From an uncultured Candidatus Saccharibacteria bacterium (GTDB lineage: Bacteria; Patescibacteriota; Minisyncoccia; Minisyncoccales; PWPS01), in the NCBI GenBank assembly GCA_964435025.1, contig CAYSXL010000001.1, positions 1-57,118 of the forward strand: a stretch of 57,118 bases of DNA, written 5' to 3'. How positions within the stretch are numbered: the stretch's first letter is position 1; every line of letters begins with the position of its first letter. Made by a program: the position numbers and the translations under genes. The notes beneath the pieces are model-generated. The model saw only the letters and a program-made list of their open reading frames with translations. It had not been told where the DNA came from and ran no database searches. This document shows positions 11,304-51,174 of the stretch, piece after piece.

Positions 11304-11582
11304 ATGGATACCAAAAAAATACTTATTGTTATCGCGATAGTTTTGGGTATAGTTGTTATTGTTGCCGCTTTCTCGCTTATGAGTGAGCCTGCGGAATTCG
11401 AATTTGAAGAGGATGAGGACCTCTTGGAAGAAGATCCTTTTGATTTCGAAGATGAAGAAACTGACGTAGAAGAAGAGGTTGTAGATGAAGACGAGGAAGA
11501 CGAAGATGAGGAAGCTGACGAGGAAGATGAGGAAGAGGAAGAAGACGAGGAAGAAGACGAGGAAGAAGGAGCGGAATACTAA
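11304..11582 (+). CDS. Small membrane-anchored polyacidic protein (one TM helix plus a ~60-aa D/E tail)
   Basis: ILIVIAIVLGIVVIVAAFSL is followed by almost pure D/E sequence. The gene has its own promoter and terminator. Confidence 0.6.
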   Translation: MDTKKILIVIAIVLGIVVIVAAFSLMSEPAEFEFEEDEDLLEEDPFDFEDEETDVEEEVVDEDEEDEDEEADEEDEEEEEDEEEDEEEGAEY

Positions 11583-15288: not shown

Positions 15289-16726
15289 AGATTATAAAAC
15301 AATAGTGGAAAGTGCCCAGGACGGCATAATTATAGTTCAAGAAGATATTATAAAATATGCCAACCCCTATGCGGAAAACTCCTTAGGCTATAACAGAGAG
15401 GGGATTAAAGGCGCGAAATTTTTAGAGCTTGTTGCCGAGGAAAGTAAAGAAGAGGTTTTAAAGAACTATGAAAAGACAATGAAAGGGGAAAAAACAAACC
15501 TGTACGAAGCAAAAATAAAAAGAAGAGATGGAAACTTACTTGCGGGAGAAATTCACGCGCATAGGATAAGCTATAAGGGAAAGCCGGCTGACCTTGTAAT
15601 TATCAGGGATATTAAGGCGAGAAAGAAAACGGAAGAAGTTCTGCGCCGACAAGAAGAAAGATTTCAAGCGGTGACCGAGAATACCCCCGATATAATTTCT
15701 CGCTTTGATGAGGATGGGCGTTATGTCTATGTTAACGCTGCGGCGGAGAAAGAGTTTGGTATTGCGAAAAAGGATTTTTTCTGGAAAACCGACAAGGATC
15801 TCGGCATAGAAAGCGAAAGATCAAAGGCTTTTCACGATGCAATCGAGTTTGTTTTTAAAAATAAAAAAAAGAAGACTTTTTACAGTGAGACTTCAATTAA
15901 TGACGAGAAGAAATATTATTATACGGTAATCGTGCCGGAATTCTACGAGGATGGTGCGGTTAATTCCGTACTCAGCATTACAAGGGATATTACCGAAATA
16001 AGAGAAATAGACCAAGCGAAATCGGAATTTATTTCTATTACCTCGCATCAGCTGCGCTCTCCGTTATCGATAATAAACTGGTGCTCTCTTTCTCTTCTTA
16101 GGGGTGATGTAGGGGAAATAGAAGGGGAACAGAAAGAGTATGTGGAAAAGATGTACGAATCGACAAGAAAAATGATTAAAATAACCGATGCCTTTCTAAA
16201 TACGACCATGCTTGATTTGGGGATGTTTGTTTTTAACCCCCGGAAAATAGATGTGGCAAGCGTAACCAAAGAAATAATTAGAAATTTTGAGAGCACCATT
16301 AAAAAAAAGGAAATAAATCTTGTGCGTGACTACAAAGAACCTTTACCGATTGAAATTGATGAACGTACTTTAAAAATAATCTTGCGCGGCCTTATTTCCA
16401 ATGCGGCCGAATATACGCCTCCACAAGGAAATATGGAGATTAGTATAAAAAGAACTTCGGAAGAAGAAATACTTATTGAGGTGGGAGATAGTGGTTGCGG
16501 AATTCCAAAAGAAGACCAGGAAAAAGTATTTAATAAATTCTTTAGAGCCGAGAAGGCGAAGGAAATAAAGGTTTACGGCACCGGTCTTGATCTTTATCTA
16601 ATAAAGTCGCTTCTTGAAAAAGTAGGAGGAAGCATTGAACTCGAGTCTCCAAATCCAAAATTTAATGCGGGAGCGGTTTTCAGTATCAGATTGCCTGTTA
16701 CTACCAAGGAAGAAAATGAGTTTTAA
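15281..16726 (+). CDS. Cytoplasmic PAS-PAS sensor histidine kinase
   Basis: Two PAS-like segments, the HisKA H-box ITSHQLRSPL, and HATPase N/G boxes (NAAEYT, DSGCGIP, GTGLDLYL). No TM helix. ATG 15281 overlaps the upstream stop (ATGAATGA). Confidence 0.85.
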   Translation: MNEDYKTIVESAQDGIIIVQEDIIKYANPYAENSLGYNREGIKGAKFLELVAEESKEEVLKNYEKTMKGEKTNLYEAKIKRRDGNLLAGEIHAHRISYKGKPADLVIIRDIKARKKTEEVLRRQEERFQAVTENTPDIISRFDEDGRYVYVNAAAEKEFGIAKKDFFWKTDKDLGIESERSKAFHDAIEFVFKNKKKKTFYSETSINDEKKYYYTVIVPEFYEDGAVNSVLSITRDITEIREIDQAKSEFISITSHQLRSPLSIINWCSLSLLRGDVGEIEGEQKEYVEKMYESTRKMIKITDAFLNTTMLDLGMFVFNPRKIDVASVTKEIIRNFESTIKKKEINLVRDYKEPLPIEIDERTLKIILRGLISNAAEYTPPQGNMEISIKRTSEEEILIEVGDSGCGIPKEDQEKVFNKFFRAEKAKEIKVYGTGLDLYLIKSLLEKVGGSIELESPNPKFNAGAVFSIRLPVTTKEENEF

Positions 16727-19700
16727 GGAGAGATACAACAAACTAAATAAAGATCAAAAGAGCGCCGTTAATCATACGGAAGGTCCGCTTCTCGTTATCG
16801 CCGGTCCGGGTTCGGGAAAGACGGAGCTTTTGGGAATTAGAGTGGGGAATATTTTAAAAAAAACGGACGTTCCTCCTGAAAGTATTCTTTGTCTCACTTA
16901 TACGGATGCAGCTTCTTCCGGTATGAAAGAAAGACTTATTGAACTTGTCGGTGAGGACGGGTACAAGGTCCCGACGCACACCTTTCACGGGTTTTGCAAG
17001 AAAATAATGGAATCTTACCCCGAATATTTTTTTAAAGGGGCTCTTTTTAATGTTGCCGATGATGCCACCAGAACAGGAATCCTGGAAAGCATACTTAGCG
17101 AGCTTGAGCATGACAACCCTTTGAGTGTTGTTCACCCCAAAAAAGGATATATCCATCTCGAGGGCGTAAAAGAGGGGGTTACGCGTCTAAAAGAAAGCGG
17201 GCTTACGGTGAGTGAATTTAAAAAAGTAGTTGAAGAGAACAAAAAATTTTTAGAAAAGACACAAGGAAAAATAGACAATATTTTCAGCCAAAGAGTAAGC
17301 AAGGAGACGGTGGCAGAAATTGAATTGTTTATAGTAGATTTAAGGAAAGAGAAAAAATTTGCGGTGGGTCACGTAAAATCTTTGGCGCATATTATAGCTG
17401 ATTCTCTTGAGCTAGCTATAGAAGGAGGGAGTACTGAGAAAATTTCTCGGTGGAAGCGGGTTTGGACAAAAAAGGACCAAGAAAAAAGGATATTAAAAAA
17501 TTTATCCGATATCGAGAAGATGGAAAGCATGGCTGATATTTACGAGAAGTATAAAGCAAAGATGTATGAAGAGGGGTATTACGAATTTCTTGACATGCTT
17601 CTTGATGTAGCCGTAGAAATGGAAAATAACGAGTCGCTAAGAGATGAGCTACGAGAAAAATACCTTTACTTTTTGGTTGATGAGTTTCAGGATACAAACG
17701 GTATCCAGATGCGTATTTTAAACCTTCTTATAGAGGATGAGAGGGATAGATTGCCCAATATTTGTGTCGTGGGAGACGACGACCAGGCAATTTATAGGTT
17801 TCAGGGCGCTGAAATATCCAATATTTTGGGATTCCGGGAAAGTTATCCGGATGCGAAAGTAGTGACGCTTCTAAAGAACTACCGCTCAAAACAAAAAATA
17901 ATCGAGTTAGCAAGAAATGTTATTTTAAAAGGCGGAGAGAGATTGGAAAACTTACTTAAAGAAGTCAATAAAGATCTTGTCTCTCAAACGGGAAAGGGTA
18001 AAGAAGTTTTTCTGAGATCTTTTAACACAAAAGAAGAAGAGTATACGTTCGTAGCGCGAAAAGTAAAGCGCATTATCTCCGAAGGAAAGGATCCGGGAGA
18101 GATAGCGATTATCGGGAGAACACATAAATCTTTACAGGAGATAAGACCGTTCTTTTCTTATTTAAACATCCCCACTTATTCGGAAAGAAAAGAGAATGTG
18201 CTTGAAAAAGAGCATGTCAGACAAATAATCACTATCGTAAAGTTCGCCTCCCTTTGCCTGGAAGGGGACAAAAAGAGTTCCGAAGAACTTCTTCCCGAGA
18301 TACTGAGCTTTCCTTTCTGGGAACTAAAAAGAGAAAAGATAATGGAAGTGTCTTCCAAGGCGTATCTTGAAAGAAAATCTTGGCTTACATGCATGAAAGA
18401 GGACGGGGAACTTAAGCATATCGCGGATTTTTTAATAGATATTTCCCTAAAGGCAAAAAACAAATCTCTTGAAGAGATCGTTGATATAGTTATCGGAACG
18501 AAAAGAGGCTATTTGGAAAGCCCTTTTAAAAAATTCCATTTTTCAAAAGAAAGACTTGAGAATGAAAGCAATAGTTATTTGGACCTGCTTTCCTCTTTGA
18601 GATGTTTTATTAAAGCGGTAAGGACGTATAAGGCCGGGAAATTTACCAAAGCAAAAGATTTAACGTATTTCCTGGAGCTCTATAAAAAAAACAATATTTC
18701 TTTGCTTAACAAAGATCCTCTTATCTCTCAGGAAGGCGTGGTTTCGCTTATAACCGCACACAACGCGAAAGGAAAAGAGTTCGATACGGTTTTTGTTTTA
18801 AATTGCCAAAGAGAAGAGTGGGGAGTGACGAAGGGGAGAAGAAAGATATCCCTTCCCGCCAATATTCCTTTCAGAAAGGCGGGGGATGAGGATGATGACA
18901 GATTACGCCTGTTTTACGTTGCGCTTACCAGAGCGAAGAATTTTCTTTATCCGGTTTGCTATAAAAAAGAAGAAGACGGAAAGAACGTGACGCCTCTGGA
19001 ATTTTTAAGTGGCATAAAAAGCAAAGAAAGAAAGGAAAAAGTATGTGAGGAAAGTTTCCGGTCTGCTTTTCTTTCTTTCTATACCTCGCCGTTTCACAGA
19101 AAGGAGCGCGATTTTTTGTTTTCTTTGGTAAAAAAACACAAGCTTAGCGCTACGGGAATTAACAAATTTTTAAATGTTACGGATGAAGGACCCCAAAGTT
19201 TCTTGGAAGAAAACATTTTGCATTTTCCCGAGAAAAAGGCGCTTCCTTTATCCTATGGAACAGCTGTTCATTCTGTTATAAATGAAATATATGTGGAGCT
19301 TAAAAAGAAAGGAAAACTTCTAAACGAAAAGAGAATAATAGAAATTTTTGAAAATTATTTAAGAAAGGAAAGACTTTCCGAGAAAGATTTTAGCAAGCTT
19401 CTAAAGCAAGGAAAGCAGGAGATTACTTTGTTTTACAAAGCAAAAAGAAAAGAATTTTCCGCTGATCATATTATTGAAAAGAATTTTAGAAACGAAGATT
19501 GCTTAGTCGGTGGTGTAGAAATTACGGGAAAGATTGACAAGATAATTAAGGATGAAAACCGCATTAAGGTCGCTGACTTCAAGACGGGTAATTCTCTTTT
19601 TGACTGGAAGGGGAAAAATGAATATGAAAAAGTGAAGGCCTGGAAATATAAAAATCAACTTATTTTTTACAAGTTTCTCGTGGAGAATTCAAAAGAATTT

Positions 19701-19940
19701 AAAGGAAAATATTTTGTAGAATCGGGATATCTGGAATTCATAAGGCCTACAAAAGAAAAAGAAGTGATAACTTTGCCTTTGGAATTCAAAAAAGAAGATG
19801 AAGAGAGAATGGAGGCCTTGATTAAAGTTGTGGCAAATAAGATTGGGAAACTTGATTTCCCCTCCGTTGAAAAATATAAAAAAGGTACCGTAAAAGAGAT
19901 TGCGCAATTTGAGAATGATCTTCTTTGTGGAAGGTTGTAG
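16716..19940 (+). CDS. UvrD/Rep-family helicase fused to a C-terminal PD-(D/E)xK (RecB-type) nuclease; AddA/RecB-like
   Basis: AGPGSGKT, DEFQDTN, VGDDDQAIYRFQGA, YRS, and VALTRAK helicase motifs. The C-terminus GKIDKI...KVADFKTG...YKNQLIFYKFL matches D...DxK...QxxxY. ATG 16716 overlaps the kinase stop by 11 nt. Confidence 0.85.
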   Translation: MSFKERYNKLNKDQKSAVNHTEGPLLVIAGPGSGKTELLGIRVGNILKKTDVPPESILCLTYTDAASSGMKERLIELVGEDGYKVPTHTFHGFCKKIMESYPEYFFKGALFNVADDATRTGILESILSELEHDNPLSVVHPKKGYIHLEGVKEGVTRLKESGLTVSEFKKVVEENKKFLEKTQGKIDNIFSQRVSKETVAEIELFIVDLRKEKKFAVGHVKSLAHIIADSLELAIEGGSTEKISRWKRVWTKKDQEKRILKNLSDIEKMESMADIYEKYKAKMYEEGYYEFLDMLLDVAVEMENNESLRDELREKYLYFLVDEFQDTNGIQMRILNLLIEDERDRLPNICVVGDDDQAIYRFQGAEISNILGFRESYPDAKVVTLLKNYRSKQKIIELARNVILKGGERLENLLKEVNKDLVSQTGKGKEVFLRSFNTKEEEYTFVARKVKRIISEGKDPGEIAIIGRTHKSLQEIRPFFSYLNIPTYSERKENVLEKEHVRQIITIVKFASLCLEGDKKSSEELLPEILSFPFWELKREKIMEVSSKAYLERKSWLTCMKEDGELKHIADFLIDISLKAKNKSLEEIVDIVIGTKRGYLESPFKKFHFSKERLENESNSYLDLLSSLRCFIKAVRTYKAGKFTKAKDLTYFLELYKKNNISLLNKDPLISQEGVVSLITAHNAKGKEFDTVFVLNCQREEWGVTKGRRKISLPANIPFRKAGDEDDDRLRLFYVALTRAKNFLYPVCYKKEEDGKNVTPLEFLSGIKSKERKEKVCEESFRSAFLSFYTSPFHRKERDFLFSLVKKHKLSATGINKFLNVTDEGPQSFLEENILHFPEKKALPLSYGTAVHSVINEIYVELKKKGKLLNEKRIIEIFENYLRKERLSEKDFSKLLKQGKQEITLFYKAKRKEFSADHIIEKNFRNEDCLVGGVEITGKIDKIIKDENRIKVADFKTGNSLFDWKGKNEYEKVKAWKYKNQLIFYKFLVENSKEFKGKYFVESGYLEFIRPTKEKEVITLPLEFKKEDEERMEALIKVVANKIGKLDFPSVEKYKKGTVKEIAQFENDLLCGRL

Positions 19941-23877: not shown

Positions 23878-25794
23878 ATGTCTGAATTTAAAGAAGAGCT
23901 TAACAAAGAACAGCTTAGAATTGTGCGCGAGGGTGACGGCCCTTGTCTTGTTTTAAGTGGTCCCGGTTCCGGAAAAACAAAAACGCTTGTTCACAGAACA
24001 GCTTATCTTATAAAAAAGGGAATTCCTCCTTCAAGAATACTTCTCCTTACCTTCACCAAAAAAGCGGCAAAAGAAATGCTTTTTCGCATCAAACTACTCG
24101 CCGGAAAAGAAGGTGAAAAGGTTTATGGAGGGACTTTCCATCATACGGGTAATTATTATCTAAGAAAATATGCGGGAAGGATAGGTTATCCTTCCAATTT
24201 TGTTATTCTTGACGAAGAAGATTCCAAGAGTCTTTTATCTATCATATTGAAAGAAGAAAAGGAAAAAGGTATCCCTAAAGCTCAGGTGGTACAAAAGATA
24301 ATATCCTTAGCGGTAAACTCTCAAAAGGATATAAATAGTGTTATAAGCACTTTTTTTCCCTACTTCGACAAAGACACAAAAGATGTAATCTCAAATGTGA
24401 ATGAAGCTTACAAGAAGCGGAAAAAGCAAAGTAATCTCATGGATTACGATGACCTTCTTTTAAATTGGAACGAGATTCTTTCTTTTCCCGACATAGGGAA
24501 AGAGATATCTTCCAACTTTCTATATATTCTTATCGACGAATACCAGGATACGAATTCACTTCAGGACGATATCGCAAAAAAACTTGCTACAGCGCATAAA
24601 AATATTTTGGCCGTAGGGGACGATTCTCAAAGCATCTATTCTTTTAGAGCGGCCGATATAAATAATATCCTTAATTTTTCCAAGAACTATACCCGCGCTA
24701 AAGTGTTTAAACTGGAAACGAATTATCGGAGTACTCCGGAAATACTTGATGCTGCAAACAGAGTGATCGCCAACAACGAAAACAAACTGGAAAAAAAATT
24801 GAAAAGCTCTCTTATGCAAGGAAAAGCGCCGACAATAAAAAGTTTCGCCTCTCCTTATGACCAGGCGAGATATATTGTTAATCGTATTGAGGAAATAAAC
24901 GACCCTGCACAAACAGCGGTTCTTTTTCGCGCTCACCATCATTCCATTGAACTTGAAATGGAGCTTGTAAAAAGAAAAATTCCCTATGGATTAAGAGGGG
25001 GACCAAAATTCTTCGAACAGCTCCATGTCAAAGATTTACTTGCTTTTCTAAAGATACTTTCAAATTTTTGCGACGAAACCTCGTGGCACAGGTTACTTAT
25101 GAGACAAGAGGGAATTGGCGATGTCTATGCAAGCCAGCTTACAAAAAGGGTCTGTCGTTTTAAAGACTTAAAAAGCGTTCTTTTAGAAAAAGAAAAAGTC
25201 ATTGCCTCTTTCTCTTCAAAATCGGTCAAAAATGGTATCGATTCTCTCCTCTCAATTATTGAAAAAAGCCGGGGGAAAACGGTTGCGGAAGCCATAGAAT
25301 GTTTCTTGCAAGACTTCTACGGGACTTATCTGGACTTCTCTTTTGAAAACGCGAAGGAAAGGAAAAGCGATCTGCAGCGGGTAAAAGAATTAGCAAAAAA
25401 CTATAACAACGTAGGGGAGATGCTTGCGGAATTCATGCTCAGCGAGGAATACGGAGATGAAAGCAAAAATGAAAATACGATTATTTTAAGTAGCATACAC
25501 CAAGCAAAGGGACTTGAGTGGGAATCGGTCTTTGTTATTTCCCTCAAGGAAGGAGACTTTCCCCACGGCAAATCCTTGGAGGATAATCTAATTGAGGAAG
25601 AAAGACGCCTTTTTTATGTTGCTATTACGCGCTGTAAAAAGAATCTTTTCCTAACTTATCCCGTTTACAGCTCCAGGGAAAAGTATACTTCTTCTCCGTC
25701 GAGATTTCTTCGAGAGATTAAAGAGATTGAAAAAGAGGAAGAAATTATTGAAGAAGAGATAATTGATGAAGATGGTGAGTGGGAGTATTTTTAA
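23878..25794 (+). CDS. UvrD/PcrA-type ATP-dependent DNA helicase (no nuclease domain)
   Basis: LNKEQ...GPGSGKT, DEYQDTN, VGDDSQSIYSFRAA, NYRS, SIHQAKGLEW, YVAITR. Confidence 0.85.
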   Translation: MSEFKEELNKEQLRIVREGDGPCLVLSGPGSGKTKTLVHRTAYLIKKGIPPSRILLLTFTKKAAKEMLFRIKLLAGKEGEKVYGGTFHHTGNYYLRKYAGRIGYPSNFVILDEEDSKSLLSIILKEEKEKGIPKAQVVQKIISLAVNSQKDINSVISTFFPYFDKDTKDVISNVNEAYKKRKKQSNLMDYDDLLLNWNEILSFPDIGKEISSNFLYILIDEYQDTNSLQDDIAKKLATAHKNILAVGDDSQSIYSFRAADINNILNFSKNYTRAKVFKLETNYRSTPEILDAANRVIANNENKLEKKLKSSLMQGKAPTIKSFASPYDQARYIVNRIEEINDPAQTAVLFRAHHHSIELEMELVKRKIPYGLRGGPKFFEQLHVKDLLAFLKILSNFCDETSWHRLLMRQEGIGDVYASQLTKRVCRFKDLKSVLLEKEKVIASFSSKSVKNGIDSLLSIIEKSRGKTVAEAIECFLQDFYGTYLDFSFENAKERKSDLQRVKELAKNYNNVGEMLAEFMLSEEYGDESKNENTIILSSIHQAKGLEWESVFVISLKEGDFPHGKSLEDNLIEEERRLFYVAITRCKKNLFLTYPVYSSREKYTSSPSRFLREIKEIEKEEEIIEEEIIDEDGEWEYF

Positions 25795-35508: not shown

Positions 35509-36249
35509 TTAATATTCCTCCTTCCATTCGATGTCCTCCTCTTTTCCGGCAAATTCAAGCCAATCGCCGGTTTCACGACTAATAACGAACCACTTCCTTT
35601 TTGTTTTTGACCAGACCATGGGATCGCCGCGAAAATAGGGTTTGTTCTTTTTTTCTTTGGGCTTTAAATTTTCAATTTCCGGCCATTTCTTGAAGACCGT
35701 TTCAATGGCGTAATCAAGATTTCTTGATTTTGCCCAAAGAGCTACTTTGTCCATGGCTTTTTTGGCCTCTTGTACTGATCCGGTAAGTTCTAAAAGGTCT
35801 TTCGCCGGCTTTGTATATCGTGAATAAATGATCTTTCTTTTTTTTGTATCCTTTTTTATCTCTTCAAGTGAAAAACCCTTCGTCTTAAAGTAGTGGTTAA
35901 CTATTTTTTGAATATCCGTTTCAGCATTATTTTGGGGCAAAGGAGGAACGATACCCTTATCTTCCAGATATTCTAACAAATCATGAACAGTTTTCAAATG
36001 CTTTTTTATAGCGGCGTCTTTCACTTGTTGGTTTTGGAGGTGTTTGCGGTATTTCTGAATGTGTTTTTTTTCAAGTTGTTCTGGAAAGATGTCTTGTATC
36101 TGCTCTTTTATAAGCCATTGTTTGAAGAACTCGAGACTTCTTTCTCTTTCTCTTATTCCCGATAAAGCAAACCCTTTCTTTTCCTTGTCCAAAAGAAAAG
36201 AGGGGAAGTAGGCGATTAACGTATTGTCTCTTTTTACTTTTTCCGACAT
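35509..36249 (-). CDS. Hypothetical protein with an N-terminal phage-integrase SAM-like (core-binding) pattern but no catalytic domain
   Basis: FPSFLLDKEKKGFALSGIRERERSLEFFKQWL....IFPEQLEKKHIQKYRKHLQ....AAIKKHLKTVHDLLEYLEDKG fits the SAM-like fold pattern. The C-terminal half is unrecognised and has no R..HxxR..Y signature. Confidence 0.5.
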   Translation of the reverse strand: MSEKVKRDNTLIAYFPSFLLDKEKKGFALSGIRERERSLEFFKQWLIKEQIQDIFPEQLEKKHIQKYRKHLQNQQVKDAAIKKHLKTVHDLLEYLEDKGIVPPLPQNNAETDIQKIVNHYFKTKGFSLEEIKKDTKKRKIIYSRYTKPAKDLLELTGSVQEAKKAMDKVALWAKSRNLDYAIETVFKKWPEIENLKPKEKKNKPYFRGDPMVWSKTKRKWFVISRETGDWLEFAGKEEDIEWKEEY

Positions 36250-38490: not shown

Positions 38491-38889
38491 ATGCCTGATA
38501 ATTGGTTAATGATATTGGCAATTGTGGGAGGTGCTGTAATTGTGTGGTACATGATGCAACTCCAGAGAGAAAGGAAAGAAGGCAAAAAAGAGCCGGAGGA
38601 AGAGAAAGAGGAACTTACAAAGGAAGATGACAATGTCAAGGAAAAAGAAGAAGAGGCCGTTTCCGAAGGAAGCACAGAAGAAGAGAAAGGAGAGGAAGTT
38701 AAAGAAGGAGGAGTAGAAGAAGAGGAAGTTGAAGAAGAGGAAGTTGAAAAAGAAGAAGTTGAAGAAGAAGAAGGATTAGAAGAGGAGGAAGAGAAGAAAG
38801 AAGAAGGAGATGAAGAGCGCGCAATGCATGAAGAGGAAGCAGGAGATGTAGAGGATGAAAAAAGCGAAGAAGATGAAGACGATTTTTAA
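38491..38889 (+). CDS. Small membrane-anchored poly-Glu protein
   Basis: WLMILAIVGGAVIVWYMM TM helix, then about 100 aa dominated by E/K with EEEVE-type repeats. Confidence 0.6.
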   Translation: MPDNWLMILAIVGGAVIVWYMMQLQRERKEGKKEPEEEKEELTKEDDNVKEKEEEAVSEGSTEEEKGEEVKEGGVEEEEVEEEEVEKEEVEEEEGLEEEEEKKEEGDEERAMHEEEAGDVEDEKSEEDEDDF

Positions 38890-47733: not shown

Positions 47734-49296
47734 ATGAAGAATACGGAAAAAAATATTCGTGTCAGATTTGCTCCTTCACCGACGGGATATTTTCATATTG
47801 GATCTGCAAGAATAGCACTCTTTAACTTTCTTTATGCCAAAAAGTGTAACGGAACTTTTGTTTTAAGGATAGAAGACACCGATAGAGAGAGATCGAAAGA
47901 GGAATATGAGAATGACATTATGCGAAGTTTAAAATGGTTAGGTTTACAGTGGGAGGAAGGTGTATTCGAAAACAAAGAAAAAGGAGATTTCGGTCCTTAC
48001 AGACAAAGTGAGAGAGGCAAGATATATAAGGAGTATGTCAAGAAATTACTTGAAAGCGGGAATGCTTATTACTGTTTTTGTACCAAGGAAGAGTTGGAAG
48101 AAAGGAGGGAAAAACAGAAAACGAAAAAGGAAGCTCCACGTTATGACGGTAAATGCTTTAAACTTTCCGATGACGAAAAGAAAAAGAGGTTTGCACAGAA
48201 CAAAGATTACGTAATAAGGCTTCGCTTGCCCGAGAATGACACTATCGAATTTGAAGACTTGGTGAGAGGAAAAGTAAAATTTGATTCTAATGATATAGGA
48301 GGAGACTTTGTAATTGCAAGAGGAGACTTTTCTCCTCTTTATAACTTTGCTTGCAGTGTAGATGATTACGAGATGAAAATAACCCATGTTATAAGAGGAG
48401 AAGATCACATATCCAACACTCCCAAGCAGATTCTTGTCCAGCGTGCGCTCGGTATCCCGACGCCGGATTATGCTCATCTTCCTCTTACTCTCGGACCGGA
48501 TAAAAGCAAGCTAAGCAAACGTCACACTGCTGTTTCCTTGTATGAATACAAAGAGAAAGGATATCTTGCAAAAGGCCTTGTTAATTTTATTGCCTTTCTG
48601 GGATGGAATCCCGGTGGAGAAAGAGAAATATATTCCTTAGAAGAGATGATAAATTTGTTTTCATTTGATAAATGCCAGCGTTCAGGCGCTATTTTCAATA
48701 TCGATAAACTCAATTATATTAACGGATATTATATTCGCAACATGGATACAAAGGAGCTAACGAAGCTATGCGTTCCATACTTGCTTACAAGTAATTTAAT
48801 AACTCTTAGGTTTGAAGAAAGCCAGTATCCGCCGGCGTACGGGGGGACGGAAGTACGAGCCGATTATCTTATTACTGAAAAAAATGAATCTGCGAGTTTT
48901 GAAAAGATAAAGGCAATAGTTTCCCTCTACCAAGAGAGAATGAAAACGCTTTCGGAAATAAGTGAATTCGCCGACTACTTTTTTAGAGAAGAACTCGACT
49001 ACGGCAAAGAGCTACTTTTCTGGAAAGAGATGACAAAGGAAGAGATCGAAGATTCTCTGGAAAAAGGTATTGAAATATTATCGGGAATAAAAGAGTGGGA
49101 TATTGACTCAATACAGGAAAAACTAATAGAAGAAGCGAGCAAAAATAAGGACAAAGGAAGACTCCTTTGGCCTATAAGAGCGTCTTTAAGCGGTAAAAAA
49201 GCCTCTGCAAGCCCTTTTGAGATTGCGCAGGTTCTTGGTCCTAAAGACACTATAAAACGCCTTAAAACGGCAAAAATGAAGCTTAAAAATGGCTAA
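47734..49296 (+). CDS. gltX: Glutamate--tRNA ligase
   Basis: RFAPSPTGYFHIGSAR (HIGH), KLSKR (KMSKS), and RIEDTD. Confidence 0.9.
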   Translation: MKNTEKNIRVRFAPSPTGYFHIGSARIALFNFLYAKKCNGTFVLRIEDTDRERSKEEYENDIMRSLKWLGLQWEEGVFENKEKGDFGPYRQSERGKIYKEYVKKLLESGNAYYCFCTKEELEERREKQKTKKEAPRYDGKCFKLSDDEKKKRFAQNKDYVIRLRLPENDTIEFEDLVRGKVKFDSNDIGGDFVIARGDFSPLYNFACSVDDYEMKITHVIRGEDHISNTPKQILVQRALGIPTPDYAHLPLTLGPDKSKLSKRHTAVSLYEYKEKGYLAKGLVNFIAFLGWNPGGEREIYSLEEMINLFSFDKCQRSGAIFNIDKLNYINGYYIRNMDTKELTKLCVPYLLTSNLITLRFEESQYPPAYGGTEVRADYLITEKNESASFEKIKAIVSLYQERMKTLSEISEFADYFFREELDYGKELLFWKEMTKEEIEDSLEKGIEILSGIKEWDIDSIQEKLIEEASKNKDKGRLLWPIRASLSGKKASASPFEIAQVLGPKDTIKRLKTAKMKLKNG

Positions 49297-49591
49297 AAGC
49301 ATTCTAATAGTTATAGTAATCGCTTTTTTGGTGTATTTTGCCCTAAGCACCGAAAGAGGAGGGGATTTTGTTCGTTACCTTGGTGAACATACCGATCCCT
49401 TAAGGGATCGTGTGGAGAACATCTTTGAAGAAAGGAAAGAAATTGTAGAAGGAGAAATGGAAAAAGAAAAAGAACAAATAAAAGAAGAGGCGAAAGAAAC
49501 CGGGAAAAATTTTTGGGAGAGAATGATGGATTCTTTATTTGGCGATAGCAACAAAGATAAGGAAGAAATCGAAGAAAGCGAGGGAGATTGA
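49289..49591 (+). CDS. Small membrane-anchored charged/acidic protein
   Basis: ILIVIVIAFLVYFAL TM helix followed by an E/K-rich tail ending EEIEESEGD. Overlaps the gltX stop by 8 nt. Confidence 0.55.
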   Translation: MAKSILIVIVIAFLVYFALSTERGGDFVRYLGEHTDPLRDRVENIFEERKEIVEGEMEKEKEQIKEEAKETGKNFWERMMDSLFGDSNKDKEEIEESEGD

Positions 49592-49598
49592 CAAAAGG

Positions 49599-49635
49599 GG
49601 TAAAGTGATTATACTTCGTATAAGATAACTTTACC
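49599..49635 (+). other. Compound hairpin immediately after the operon stop codon (no U-tract)
   Basis: GGTAAAGT (49599-49606) pairs with ACTTTACC (49628-49635). An inner stem TTATAC-TTC-GTATAA spans 49609-49623. Confidence 0.5.
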
Positions 49636-49740
49636 GAAGTTTAAGACCAATACTTTGCCTTCTTGACGTAAAAACAGCGTTAACCCGATTATTGCCTTAT
49701 ATTCCTTTTATTACTACTTTTTTAAACTTCGGGAAAGTTA
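49626..49740. repeat. 17-bp inverted repeats bracketing direct-repeat copy A
   Basis: TAACTTTACCGAAGTTT (49626-49642) versus AAACTTCGGGAAAGTTA (49724-49740). They are complementary at 16 of 17 positions and 81 bp apart. Confidence 0.7.
49636..49726 (+). repeat. Direct repeat copy A (~91 bp, non-coding)
   Basis: GAAGTTTAAGACCAATACTTTGCCTTCTTGACGTAAAAACAGCGTTAACCCGATTATTGCCTTATATTCCTTTTATTACTACTTTTTTAAA. Contains TTGACG, 18 nt spacer, GATTAT. Confidence 0.85.
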
Positions 49741-49742
49741 AC

Positions 49743-49782
49743 GCAAGATTATGCGTAAACAATTCTGTTTCGCATAATCTGC
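49743..49782 (+). other. Long hairpin between the two direct repeats
   Basis: GC(A)AGATTATGCG pairs with CGCATAATCTGC, with one bulge, and is extended by AAAC/GTTT around a 6-nt loop. About 16 bp in total. Confidence 0.6.
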
Positions 49783-49788
49783 TTCATT

Positions 49789-49878
49789 GAAGTTTAAGAC
49801 CAATGCCTTACCTTCTTGACGTAAAAACAGCGTTAACCCGATTACTACCTTATATTCCTTTTATTACTACTTTTTAAA
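49789..49878 (+). repeat. Direct repeat copy B (~90 bp), ending 3 nt before the recombinase ATG
   Basis: Differs from copy A by 5 substitutions and one T indel (about 94% identity). The -10-like hexamer is GATTAC here. Confidence 0.85.
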
Positions 49879-49881
49879 TTA

Positions 49882-50838
49882 ATGCAGAAAAACAACACCC
49901 CCATAACAGAACACATACCTCGGTTTTTTGAATACTTGGATATCGAAAAAGGTGTCTCCAACAAGACGCAAGAAACCTATTCCCGATTCCTTAAGAGTTT
50001 TCTTGTTTGGCTCAAGGAAAACAATTTTGAAGAACTAAAACCCCATCAGCTGACCGACGAACATATTTGGAATTACCGTGTTTATCTTTCCAAACGTATA
50101 AATTCCAGAACCAAGACTCCTATATCAAAAAAGACGCGTAACTACTATCTTATTGCTCTCCGCGGGCTTTTAAATTATTTTGCGGACAGGAATATAACAT
50201 CTTTGCCGGCGGAAAAGGTAAAATTAACCAAGGAAGGAAACGAACGTACCGTAAAGTTCCTTGACTTGAAACAAATAGAAAAACTTCTCCTTTCTCCCGA
50301 TACAAAGACAAAATCCGGTCTACGCGACAGAGCCTTGCTGGAGACTCTTTTTTCCAGCGGAATGCGTGTTGCGGAGCTTGTCGCGTTAGATAAAGAACAA
50401 GTCAAAATAAATGATGACACGCAGATATTGGAAATATCCATTATCGGCAAAGGTGGTCATCCGCGAACGGTATATCTTTCAGAGCGTGCGGTAAACGCCC
50501 TTCGTGAGTACTTAAAAACCCGCCAAGACAAAGAAAAACCGCTTTTTATAAGGTATAAAGGGCCTAAAGAAGCATCAAAGCGGCTGACACCAAGGTCTGT
50601 GGAAGAAATAGTCAAAAAATATACCAAGAAAGCCGGTATTCCCCTAATGACGACACCACACACCTTACGACACTCTTATGCTACCGATCTTTTGGCGCAA
50701 GGAGTTGATTTAAGAGTAATCCAGGAATTTTTGGGCCATCGAAATATTGCCACTACCCAGATATATACCCATATTACAAGCCAGAAACTGAAAAATATTC
50801 ACAAAAAATTTCACAGTGGGAAAGAAATGAAAGAATAA
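49882..50838 (+). CDS. Tyrosine recombinase (XerC/XerD-like integrase family)
   Basis: N-terminal SAM-like core-binding domain. Catalytic signature R (SGMRVAEL), K (GKGGHPR), HxxR (HTLRHSYAT), H (LGHRN), Y (QIYTH). Confidence 0.9.
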   Translation: MQKNNTPITEHIPRFFEYLDIEKGVSNKTQETYSRFLKSFLVWLKENNFEELKPHQLTDEHIWNYRVYLSKRINSRTKTPISKKTRNYYLIALRGLLNYFADRNITSLPAEKVKLTKEGNERTVKFLDLKQIEKLLLSPDTKTKSGLRDRALLETLFSSGMRVAELVALDKEQVKINDDTQILEISIIGKGGHPRTVYLSERAVNALREYLKTRQDKEKPLFIRYKGPKEASKRLTPRSVEEIVKKYTKKAGIPLMTTPHTLRHSYATDLLAQGVDLRVIQEFLGHRNIATTQIYTHITSQKLKNIHKKFHSGKEMKE

Positions 50839-50862
50839 AATAAATAATGCCAAAATCTAAAG

Positions 50863-50916
50863 TCCAAATGCCAAAATAATTATCATCTGTCTTCTAATTT
50901 TTGGCATTTGGATTTT
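50863..50916. terminator. Hairpin terminator between the recombinase gene and a convergent small ORF
   Basis: TCCAAATGCCAAAA (50863-50876) pairs with TTTTGGCATTTGGA (50899-50912): 14 bp perfect with a 22-nt loop, followed by TTTT. Flanking AATGCCAAAAT / CATTTGCCATTT copies extend the imperfect palindrome. Confidence 0.55.
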
Positions 50917-51009: not shown

Positions 51010-51174
51010 TTAAATATCCGTTTGCTCGAATTGTAAGGGCTCTTTATTTTCCGCCTCCATTTTGGTTGTTATGATTCCCAATGAGAAAGAGAGCGTAGCG
51101 ACAAGGATTACCGCAATTATAAGCATAATATCGGAAGCGTTATCTTTGACAAAAGCTTTTATCTTTGGTAACAT
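51010..51174 (-). CDS. Possible small membrane protein (54 aa), below the ORF-track cutoff
   Basis: Reverse-strand ATG at 51174, reading MLPKIKAFVKDNASDIMLIIAVILVATLSFSLGIITTKMEAENKEPLQFEQTDI with one clear TM helix. No obvious SD, and it overlaps the rpmA promoter candidate. Confidence 0.35.
   Translation of the reverse strand: MLPKIKAFVKDNASDIMLIIAVILVATLSFSLGIITTKMEAENKEPLQFEQTDI
51146..51174 (+). promoter_or_regulatory. Sigma70-like promoter candidate for rpmA
   Basis: TTGACA, 17 nt spacer, TAACAT, about 38 nt upstream of ATG 51213. Confidence 0.4.

Follow-up and report, generated by a model that had tools for sequence, protein, structure and literature searches.

A candidate dif site directly upstream of a xer gene in Nealsonbacteria-like Patescibacteria

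Overall organization of the locus

The DNA analyzed here is a 57,118-nucleotide stretch of contig CAYSXL010000001.1 (hereafter, the window), in which a 290-bp gap (49592-49881) separates a 100-amino-acid open reading frame (ORF; 49289-49591) from a + strand gene encoding a 318-amino-acid, simple Xer-type tyrosine recombinase (xer; 49882-50838). Judged from sequence comparisons, this gap probably holds the dif site of an Xer chromosome-dimer-resolution module in Nealsonbacteria-like members of the candidate phyla radiation (CPR; Patescibacteria). The candidate site, dif1, lies on the + strand at 49613-49640 and is composed of the left arm ACTTCGTATAA (49613-23), the centre GATAAC (49624-29) and the right arm TTTACCGAAGT (49630-40). 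The site has an 11-6-11 geometry with imperfect inverted arms; eight of the 11 positions are mirrored between the two arms, including all of the outer six. The gap also contains two hairpins and two long direct repeats, and dif1 covers the 3' half of hairpin 1 together with the left member of the inverted repeats that bracket the first direct repeat. An earlier note on this DNA had proposed that the gap is a cis-acting target of the recombinase; the comparisons supported this for the 28-bp core, whereas the 153-bp unit of hairpin plus 90-mer to which the proposal had been attached was not conserved.

Conservation of the candidate dif site

When the gap was compared by BLAST with loci that had been fetched through the recombinase protein alone, the conserved match was confined to positions 49608-49646 of the window. 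The relatives share the consensus ACTTCG[C/T]ATAA-N6-TTTA[C/T]CGAAGT, which lies directly upstream of xer in many Nealsonbacteria-like genomes. Within the 57-kb window, dif1 was unique at up to three mismatches (0 expected); a pattern scan of 241 million metagenome records revealed 38 contigs with one site apiece, and a pattern scan of a viral collection for a dif1-type site gave no matches. The xer gene was found directly downstream of the site and on the same strand in 51 of the 52 site-bearing loci, which is the linkage of site and gene expected of a single-recombinase module of the XerS/difSL or XerH/difH type, and in the sole exception the contig ended 94 nt past the site. In 42 loci, 5-44 nt separated dif from the ATG, and the 241 nt of the window was the longest such interval.

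Across 37 distinct contexts, the arms were fixed and the central 6 bp occurred in nine forms, with the identity of the flanks dropping to background at positions -3 and +32 of the site. The best-conserved bases of the 28-mer were the inner arm positions, which are unpaired in the fold. The pattern used for the metagenome scan fixed arm bases, and the arm invariance across those 38 loci is partly circular; the test was therefore repeated on the protein-ascertained loci only. Among these, 12 of the 13 loci with an Xer at least 55% identical to that of the window carried an 11-6-11 site located 5-112 nt upstream of xer. This set included diverged sites, such as ATGTCGTACAA-TAGCGG-TAAAACGACTT, in which both arms had changed together.

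The site was also compared with published dif sequences. The left arm of the orthologous sites, ACTTCGCATAA, together with the following TGTA, is identical to the beta-proteobacterial dif of Thiobacillus denitrificans and Methylobacillus flagellatus (PMC2731167), and the left arm of the window matches ACTTCGCATAA at 10 of 11 positions. Published dif sites show an 11-6-11 arrangement, conserved arms, a variable centre and a location at the GC-skew shift point (PMC2731167, PMC3025954). Correspondingly, we found inverted arms of about 11 bp, conserved arms around a variable centre and a position at a skew shift, the last of these seen only locally.

In more distant CPR loci (L016-L021; Taylorbacteria and Magasanikbacteria), the xer ORF starts with ATGTCGCACAAT, which is identical to the left arm of the diverged type of site present in L013/L014 (ACGTCGCACAA, ATGTCGTACAA). 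The site may overlap the xer start codon in these loci; no clear right arm was found in L016-L021.

Promoter of xer

A sigma-70-type promoter of xer was found at 49588-49615 (+ strand), consisting of TTGACA (49588-93), a 16-nt spacer and TATACT (49610-15), which agrees with the consensus at 11 of 12 positions. Its -10 box overlaps the first 3 nt of dif1. The pattern TTGACn-N16-18-TAnnnT was present directly before or overlapping the site in 30 of the 37 distinct contexts, compared with 0.7% of random 66-mers, and the promoter occurred in two registers, with the -10 box either lying over site bases 1-3 or ending 11-15 nt upstream. From this placement, it follows that the site occupies the transcription-start region. 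Because the site overlaps both the promoter and the transcription start, Xer bound at dif1 would probably repress its own gene. A similar arrangement was proposed by Le Bourgeois et al., who speculated that difSL lies in or just past the xerS promoter, with autoregulation or a penalty for insertions at dif as the consequence (PMC1914069).

Xer protein and its genomic neighbourhood

The product of xer matched PF00589 with 141 bits and contained SAM-like N-terminal domains. As expected for a member of the tyrosine recombinase superfamily, the catalytic set R-K-H-R-H-Y was complete upon comparison with XerD (1a0p): R in GMRVAEL, K in GKGG, H-x-x-R in HTLRHS, H in LGH and Y in QIYTH. The best matches in the PDB were Pyrococcus abyssi XerA (4a8e; E 2.4e-35), followed by XerD. 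In comparisons with NCBIfam models, the scores for XerC (228 bits, cut-off 335), XerD (227.9, cut-off 329.6) and XerA (198.5, cut-off 220) were all below threshold, so that the protein is Xer-like and belongs to none of these three equivalogs. Integron-integrase models scored far lower than their thresholds (TIGR02249, 101.8 bits against 265; NF011946, 65 against 435), and invertase models gave 58-69 bits against cut-offs of 221-222. Homologues of this Xer number in the thousands and are found in Patescibacteria/CPR (Nealsonbacteria, Wildermuthbacteria and others), with identities of 55-89% inside the site-carrying clade.

The neighbouring genes are of the housekeeping type: ftsW, murG and gltX lie upstream of xer, and downstream of it rpmA is found together with pyrG and rplI in convergent orientation. 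The window encodes no further complete tyrosine recombinase. A second Xer-like tblastn match (35947-36237) fell within a 246-amino-acid ORF (35509-36249, - strand) that is 31% identical to Xer residues 1-106; it was rejected as a second recombinase, as it contained only SAM-like N-terminal domains (PF13102, 24 bits; PF02899, 19.6 bits) and no catalytic domain. This SAM-like ORF could encode a DNA-binding partner or be a relic. We infer that the module uses a single recombinase.

Position of the site relative to the GC skew

After a climb over 49 kb, the cumulative GC skew of the window reaches its maximum at 49-50 kb and declines from there, and the orientation of the genes changes from + to - about 2 kb beyond the peak. 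Of 19 loci with enough flanking sequence, 18 showed a change of skew from + to - at the site. In 16 of these 19 loci, the xer gene itself, located on the + strand, was already negative in skew; thus, the flip is not simply an effect of the coding strand. A skew flip was absent from all of the approximately 35 loci whose Xer homologues were more distant (at most 45% identity; other CPR classes and other phyla).

Direct repeats and hairpins of the gap

The repeat finder revealed two direct repeats on the + strand (family D1), copy A at 49629-49725 and copy B at 49782-49878. Copy A lies between dif1 and a degenerate inverted copy of the site (dif2, described below) and comprises the outer part of the dif1 right arm and an 85-nt body, whereas copy B ends 3 nt 5' of the xer ATG (49882). 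Each copy is 97 nt long, with 91% ungapped identity and a spacing of 153 nt, and counted from 49636 the two differ by five substitutions and one T indel. These values confirmed the direct repeats of about 90 bp described in the earlier note, including the end of copy B just before the recombinase gene. A 56-nt pattern of the repeat core was present at only two places in the window, with 0 expected by chance. Tandem Repeats Finder did not report the 153-nt period; the 153-nt unit is not a clean tandem repeat, because the likeness is confined to the 97-nt part. In a related strain (L107), copy A bears at position 2864, which corresponds to window position 49652, a G that is the copy-B base; this hints at gene conversion between copies A and B.

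The inverted repeats and hairpins that the note had described were likewise recovered. The repeat bracketing copy A (I1; 49626-44 and 49722-40) has 19-nt arms that are 95% complementary and separated by 77 nt. Hairpin 2 (I4) has 13-nt arms (49746-58 and 49768-80; 92%), which extend to about 16 bp when a bulge is allowed, and hairpin 1 (I5) has 11-nt arms (49599-609 and 49625-35), of which the left arm showed no conservation among relatives. The whole gap folds better than shuffled sequences, with z-scores of -5.2 on the + strand and -3.6 on the - strand.

Rfam revealed no family at gathering thresholds in the whole window and nothing usable in the gap at E-values up to 10, and ARAGORN found no tRNA. 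A tRNA-like match on the minus strand (49764-49830; 18.4 bits against a cut-off of 29, E 0.47, truncated T-arm) arose only from copy B and hairpin 2 and was rejected as a chance match. The promoter-like motif TTGACG-18-GATTAT reported by the earlier note is present within the repeats, although it agrees with only 9 of 12 consensus positions and is missing from the homologous segment of the related locus L064 and from relatives; promoter-like matches across the region (8 observed against 6.5 +/- 2.4 expected) were not above chance. Contrary to the statement in the note that no ORF exceeds 11 codons, mechanical ORFs of 21-32 codons exist in the gap, none of them supported as a gene. One of these, a 24-codon ATG ORF (49803-49877, + strand), is confined to copy B; the start triplet reads ATA in copy A, a ribosome-binding site is absent, and the ORF is unlikely to be a gene.

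Degenerate dif copies and the palindromic element

Half-site scans, in which dif1 matched perfectly with a 6-nt spacer, revealed two further, degenerate copies of the site. The inverted copy dif2 (49726-49759, - strand) consists of the right-arm-like ACTTCGGGAAA (49726-36, 10/11), a 12-nt spacer and the left-arm-like TTTACGCATAA (49749-59, 8/11). The direct copy dif3 (49767-49793, + strand) consists of the left arm GTTTCGCATAA (9/11), the 5-nt spacer TCTGC and the right arm TTCATTGAAGT (9/11). In total, five half-sites at 9/11 or better were present in the gap, compared with 0.36 expected (Poisson P of about 4e-5, calculated post hoc). The features described above can be read in these terms: the bracketing inverted repeat corresponds to the dif1 right arm and, opposite it, the outer arm of dif2, and hairpin 2 corresponds to the two left-arm-like sequences. 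Together, dif2 and dif3 form a 76-nt palindromic element (PE; 49722-49797), which contains hairpin 2 and as single-stranded DNA has a folding energy of -18.7 kcal/mol (z -7.0).

Homologues of the PE were found downstream of dif in L064/L106, L066/L067 and L006, with a mean column identity of 81% over four lineages. Among the loci compared, the PE was never seen apart from xer. BLAST of the gap against phage and plasmid records gave no match, and a scan of viral contigs for the PE core gave one unrelated palindrome, located at 1750-1795 of a 32-kb IMG/VR contig (L068). This palindrome, GCAAGATTATGCG-N17-CGCATAATCTTGC, lies between divergent viral ORFs and has a 13-nt arm in common with the PE; it was set aside as probably a phage operator with a chance match to the PE.

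A related arrangement was observed in L007, where positions 1-200, about 200-400 nt upstream of xer, contain two tandem units of about 96 nt. Each unit comprises an inverted dif-like copy (left arm, 11 nt and right arm, minus strand), 8 nt and a direct copy, ACTTCGCATAA-TGTTCG-TTTGTAGAACT. The contig begins within the array, and any canonical site further upstream would lie beyond it.

Presence, absence and history of the expansion

The 97-nt repeats, unlike the 28-bp site, were seen only in assemblies of this strain. A BLAST comparison of the repeat with all fetched loci matched only L001, another assembly of the same strain, and revealed no repeat family. The comparison of regions upstream of orthologous recombinases that the earlier note had suggested separated the two elements, with the site being conserved and the repeats occurring only in assemblies of this strain. 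In the window, the 85-97-nt bodies that follow the right arms of dif1 and dif3 are 92% alike. L064 contains a diverged positional homologue of copy A, and only about 33 nt are alike between its two bodies, so that the long duplication is recent and lineage-specific. We conclude that the 90-bp repeats are a recent, strain-specific expansion built from decayed dif copies and not a conserved feature. No function could be assigned to the 90-mers themselves.

In the Xer tree, each PE-bearing lineage has a PE-less sister. The pairs are L064 (198-nt spacer) and L065 (24 nt), which share 95% Xer identity; L067 (163 nt) and L002 (25 nt); L006 (112 nt) and L105 (24 nt); and the window (241 nt) and L085 (15 nt). 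The divergence of the PE tracks that of Xer, and an ancestral element with repeated precise loss between dif1 and dif3 would therefore be the simplest history, with repeated insertion as the less economical alternative. Positions 49641-49881 (241 nt) are a lineage-specific enlargement of a spacer that normally measures 5-44 nt, in which the PE is bracketed by the recently duplicated sequence. We read this expansion as debris or a by-product of recombination at dif, where integration or duplication was followed by decay of the extra sites. Loss of the segment from dif1 to dif3 appears to have been precise and recurrent, through either Xer-mediated deletion or slippage between direct repeats. 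The excisable cassette envisaged by the earlier note gains indirect support from this pattern, as lineages whose Xer proteins are 95% identical differ in having or lacking the segment between dif1 and dif3.

The segment has an unchanged orientation in the other assemblies that cover it (L001 as a whole; L107, L108 and L110 in part). Assembly stopped inside or at the ends of the repeats in six independent contigs, which indicates that the repeat is widespread in the population and is uninformative on structural variants. Four further assemblies with identical neighbouring proteins end within the repeats, at 49637, 49687, 49687 and 49722. A contig with a 99%-identical Xer begins at the ATG and L066 begins inside the PE; all of these contigs are uninformative on one-copy or inverted variants and show only that the repeat interrupts assembly. 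A search for the exact GltX protein gave no match on record.

Comparison with known Xer systems

To place the module among known systems, we compared it with XerS/difSL, XerCD/dif, archaeal XerA/dif and XerL/dif. The XerS/difSL system of streptococci and lactococci (PMC1914069, PMC2965235, PMC5357621) is similar in that the site lies immediately upstream of the recombinase gene, forming one module in the terminus region. However, difSL is 31 bp long with an 11-bp centre, whereas the site described here is 28 bp long with a 6-bp centre, and the XerS model NF003462 gives the window Xer 123 bits against a cut-off of 267, over residues 146-309 only. Because both site geometry and protein differ, the module is not a member of the XerS/difSL family.

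On its left half, the site most closely resembles canonical dif, represented by GGTGCGCATAA-TGTATA-TTATGTTAAAT in E. coli and ACTTCGCATAA-TGTATA-TTATGTTAAAT in Thiobacillus (PMC2731167, PMC3025954). The two share the 28-bp, 11-6-11 format, an identical or nearly identical left (XerC-type) arm, conserved arms, a variable centre and a skew-shift position. In contrast to canonical dif, the right arm TTTAYCGAAGT mirrors the left arm and bears no likeness to that of XerD, and the recombinase gene directly adjoins the site. The window Xer scores equally against XerC and XerD, below both cut-offs, and is the one complete recombinase gene seen in the window. Archaeal XerA is likewise a simple Xer-type recombinase that acts on a 28-bp dif (PMC5357621, PMC8138268), but the window Xer stays below the cut-off of the XerA model. 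A subgroup of Xer-related proteins from candidate phyla, "Cand", has been recognized at the protein level (PMC8138268), and the window Xer may belong to it. In the searchable full-text literature, which is an incomplete collection, we found no description of a dif or target site for a CPR Xer.

In Legionellales, the Xer-exploiting element LME-1 integrates at the dif of the XerL system, after which the upstream site is intact and the downstream one is modified and stabilizes the insert (PMC9765430). XerL/dif shares with the present module a clade-specific dif at the skew shift point, and the order of dif1 and dif3 matches the topology of the LME-1 insertion. The differences are that LME-1 carries genes, while the inserts here are 70-213 nt long and without a gene, that xerL is not adjacent to dif, and that no inverted pseudo-site forms a palindrome there. 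The PE, for its part, is similar to CTXphi attP(+) (PMC5357621) and integron attC in being an imperfect palindrome whose arm-spacer-arm halves have unequal spacers (12 and 5 nt). Folded as single-stranded DNA, the PE would give a dif-like stem whose centre is an unpaired bubble. This is a resemblance only; the window Xer is not an integron integrase, and cassette ORFs are absent here.

Proposed function of the module and alternative explanations

In the module proposed here, Xer protomers bound to both arms of dif1 would bring the pair of dif sites in a dimeric chromosome into synapsis, and strand exchange across the centre would then yield monomers. Several points, in addition to the partial circularity of the pattern scan, weigh against this assignment. 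The function is deduced from sequence alone, and a site located in a promoter could be purely an operator. The right arm shows no likeness to the conserved XerD arm TTATGTTAAAT; its mirroring of the left arm is what binding of both arms by a single protein would predict. In this AG-rich genome, the skew tracks the coding strand as well, and since many of the 18 of 19 loci with a flip are syntenic relatives, they are not independent. The genome is not closed, so that a single site per chromosome, a position opposite the origin and a sole Xer in the genome are presumed, the site counts covering the window and the 38 contigs and the Xer count the window. The history proposed for the expansion is also one among several that fit.

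An origin of the 153-bp module from a miniature, Xer-exploiting (IMEX-like) element, integrated at dif and able to excise again, with an intact dif upstream and a modified one downstream, appears unlikely. The LME-1-like flanking of the segment by dif1 and the degenerate, direct dif3, its presence or absence between lineages with 95%-identical Xer proteins and the six contigs that break at the repeats would be in keeping with such an origin. Nevertheless, the segment holds no gene and matches nothing in viral contigs, phage or plasmid records that would point to an extrachromosomal form, the PE never occurs away from xer in the loci compared, and its divergence in step with that of Xer agrees better with vertical inheritance and recurrent loss than with acquisition on several occasions. 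It seems similarly unlikely that the 28-bp site serves only as an operator for xer, bound by Xer or another protein, with the true dimer-resolution site elsewhere. Palindromic operators are common at transcription starts, and in 30 of the 37 contexts the -10 box is overlapped or immediately followed by the site; however, an 11-6-11 format in which conserved arms flank a free centre is typical of the core sites of tyrosine recombinases, known dif sites have an identical left arm, and the coincidence with the skew flip is limited to the site-carrying clade. The operator and dif roles are, moreover, compatible, and a dual role has been proposed for difSL (PMC1914069). A more speculative idea, drawn by analogy and to which we give little credence, is that the PE might be a working single-strand hairpin substrate like CTXphi attP(+) or integron attC, with the promoter-dif-xer locus acting as a capture-and-excision platform for tiny non-coding cassettes. 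If so, Xer would still be moving cassettes at the terminus, and both the recurring presence or absence of the PE and the tandem arrays of L007 would be the result.

Two further suggestions of the earlier note fared poorly against these data. An invertible or phase-variable promoter, in which Xer would flip the 77-bp segment between the 19-bp inverted repeats, is highly improbable, even though the 19-nt repeats are real and 95% complementary and TTGACG-18-GATTAT lies inside the segment. The repeat on the right forms part of a degenerate site whose spacer is 12 nt long, 77 bp is very short for synapsis, and the motif, with its 9 of 12 positions, is not above chance and is missing from the homologous segment of L064. 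Additionally, the segment is not conserved and has a single orientation in L001 (whole) and in L107, L108 and L110 (part), unlike a Fim-type switch, and Xer falls far below the invertase cut-offs (58-69 bits against 221-222). Equally hard to credit is a structured RNA, whether a 5' leader or small RNA regulating xer or a minus-strand tRNA-like relic. The region is probably transcribed, being downstream of a conserved promoter, it folds with z-scores of -5.2 (+) and -3.6 (-), and it contains the weak minus-strand match to the tRNA model. Low fold energy is, however, expected anyway from inverted DNA repeats, and the best-conserved bases of the 28-mer are the unpaired inner arm positions. No Rfam family reached threshold, the tRNA match stayed at 18.4 against 29 bits with nothing from ARAGORN, the 90-mers are not conserved, and in most orthologues the ATG follows the site after only 5-44 nt.

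Implications of the promoter-dif-xer module

The CPR/Patescibacteria are a large, mostly uncultured group with tiny genomes, in which chromosome segregation is little understood. The assignment of dif1 as a dif site would define a compact promoter-dif-xer module, and the 28-bp site could serve as a one-line terminus marker for Nealsonbacteria-like genomes, of use for assessing the completeness of metagenome-assembled genomes, circularisation and replication-rate estimates. The module also provides sequence evidence for an idea left open for XerS/difSL, namely that a dif embedded in a promoter leads to autoregulation and to a penalty on insertions at dif; the largest insertions found here measure only 213 nt, which is consistent with such a penalty. 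Should the site prove to be an operator alone, or its assignment to the terminus not hold in a closed genome, what remains is a conserved regulatory palindrome.

Other features of the window

Some minor features were also present around xer and elsewhere in the window. Just 3' of the xer stop, an inverted repeat, CCAAATGCCAAAA ... TTTTGGCATTTGG (50860-50915), is probably the xer terminator; it was not listed by a simple terminator scan. Between xer and rpmA, a 54-amino-acid ORF (51010-51174, - strand) without a Pfam match occupies the same position in L001, L063 and L066/L067 (61 amino acids there) and looks like a conserved small protein. FtsK was not found among the eight long ORFs scanned. 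Two UvrD-family helicases are encoded less than 10 kb apart on the + strand (16635-19940 and 23878-25794), one of which has 1101 amino acids and a C-terminal PD-(D/E)XK nuclease domain, as in AddA/RecB-like proteins. Finally, GAA/GAG-rich tandem repeats with periods of 27-48 lie within ORFs at 11448-11568 and 38676-38816, where they encode acidic low-complexity stretches.

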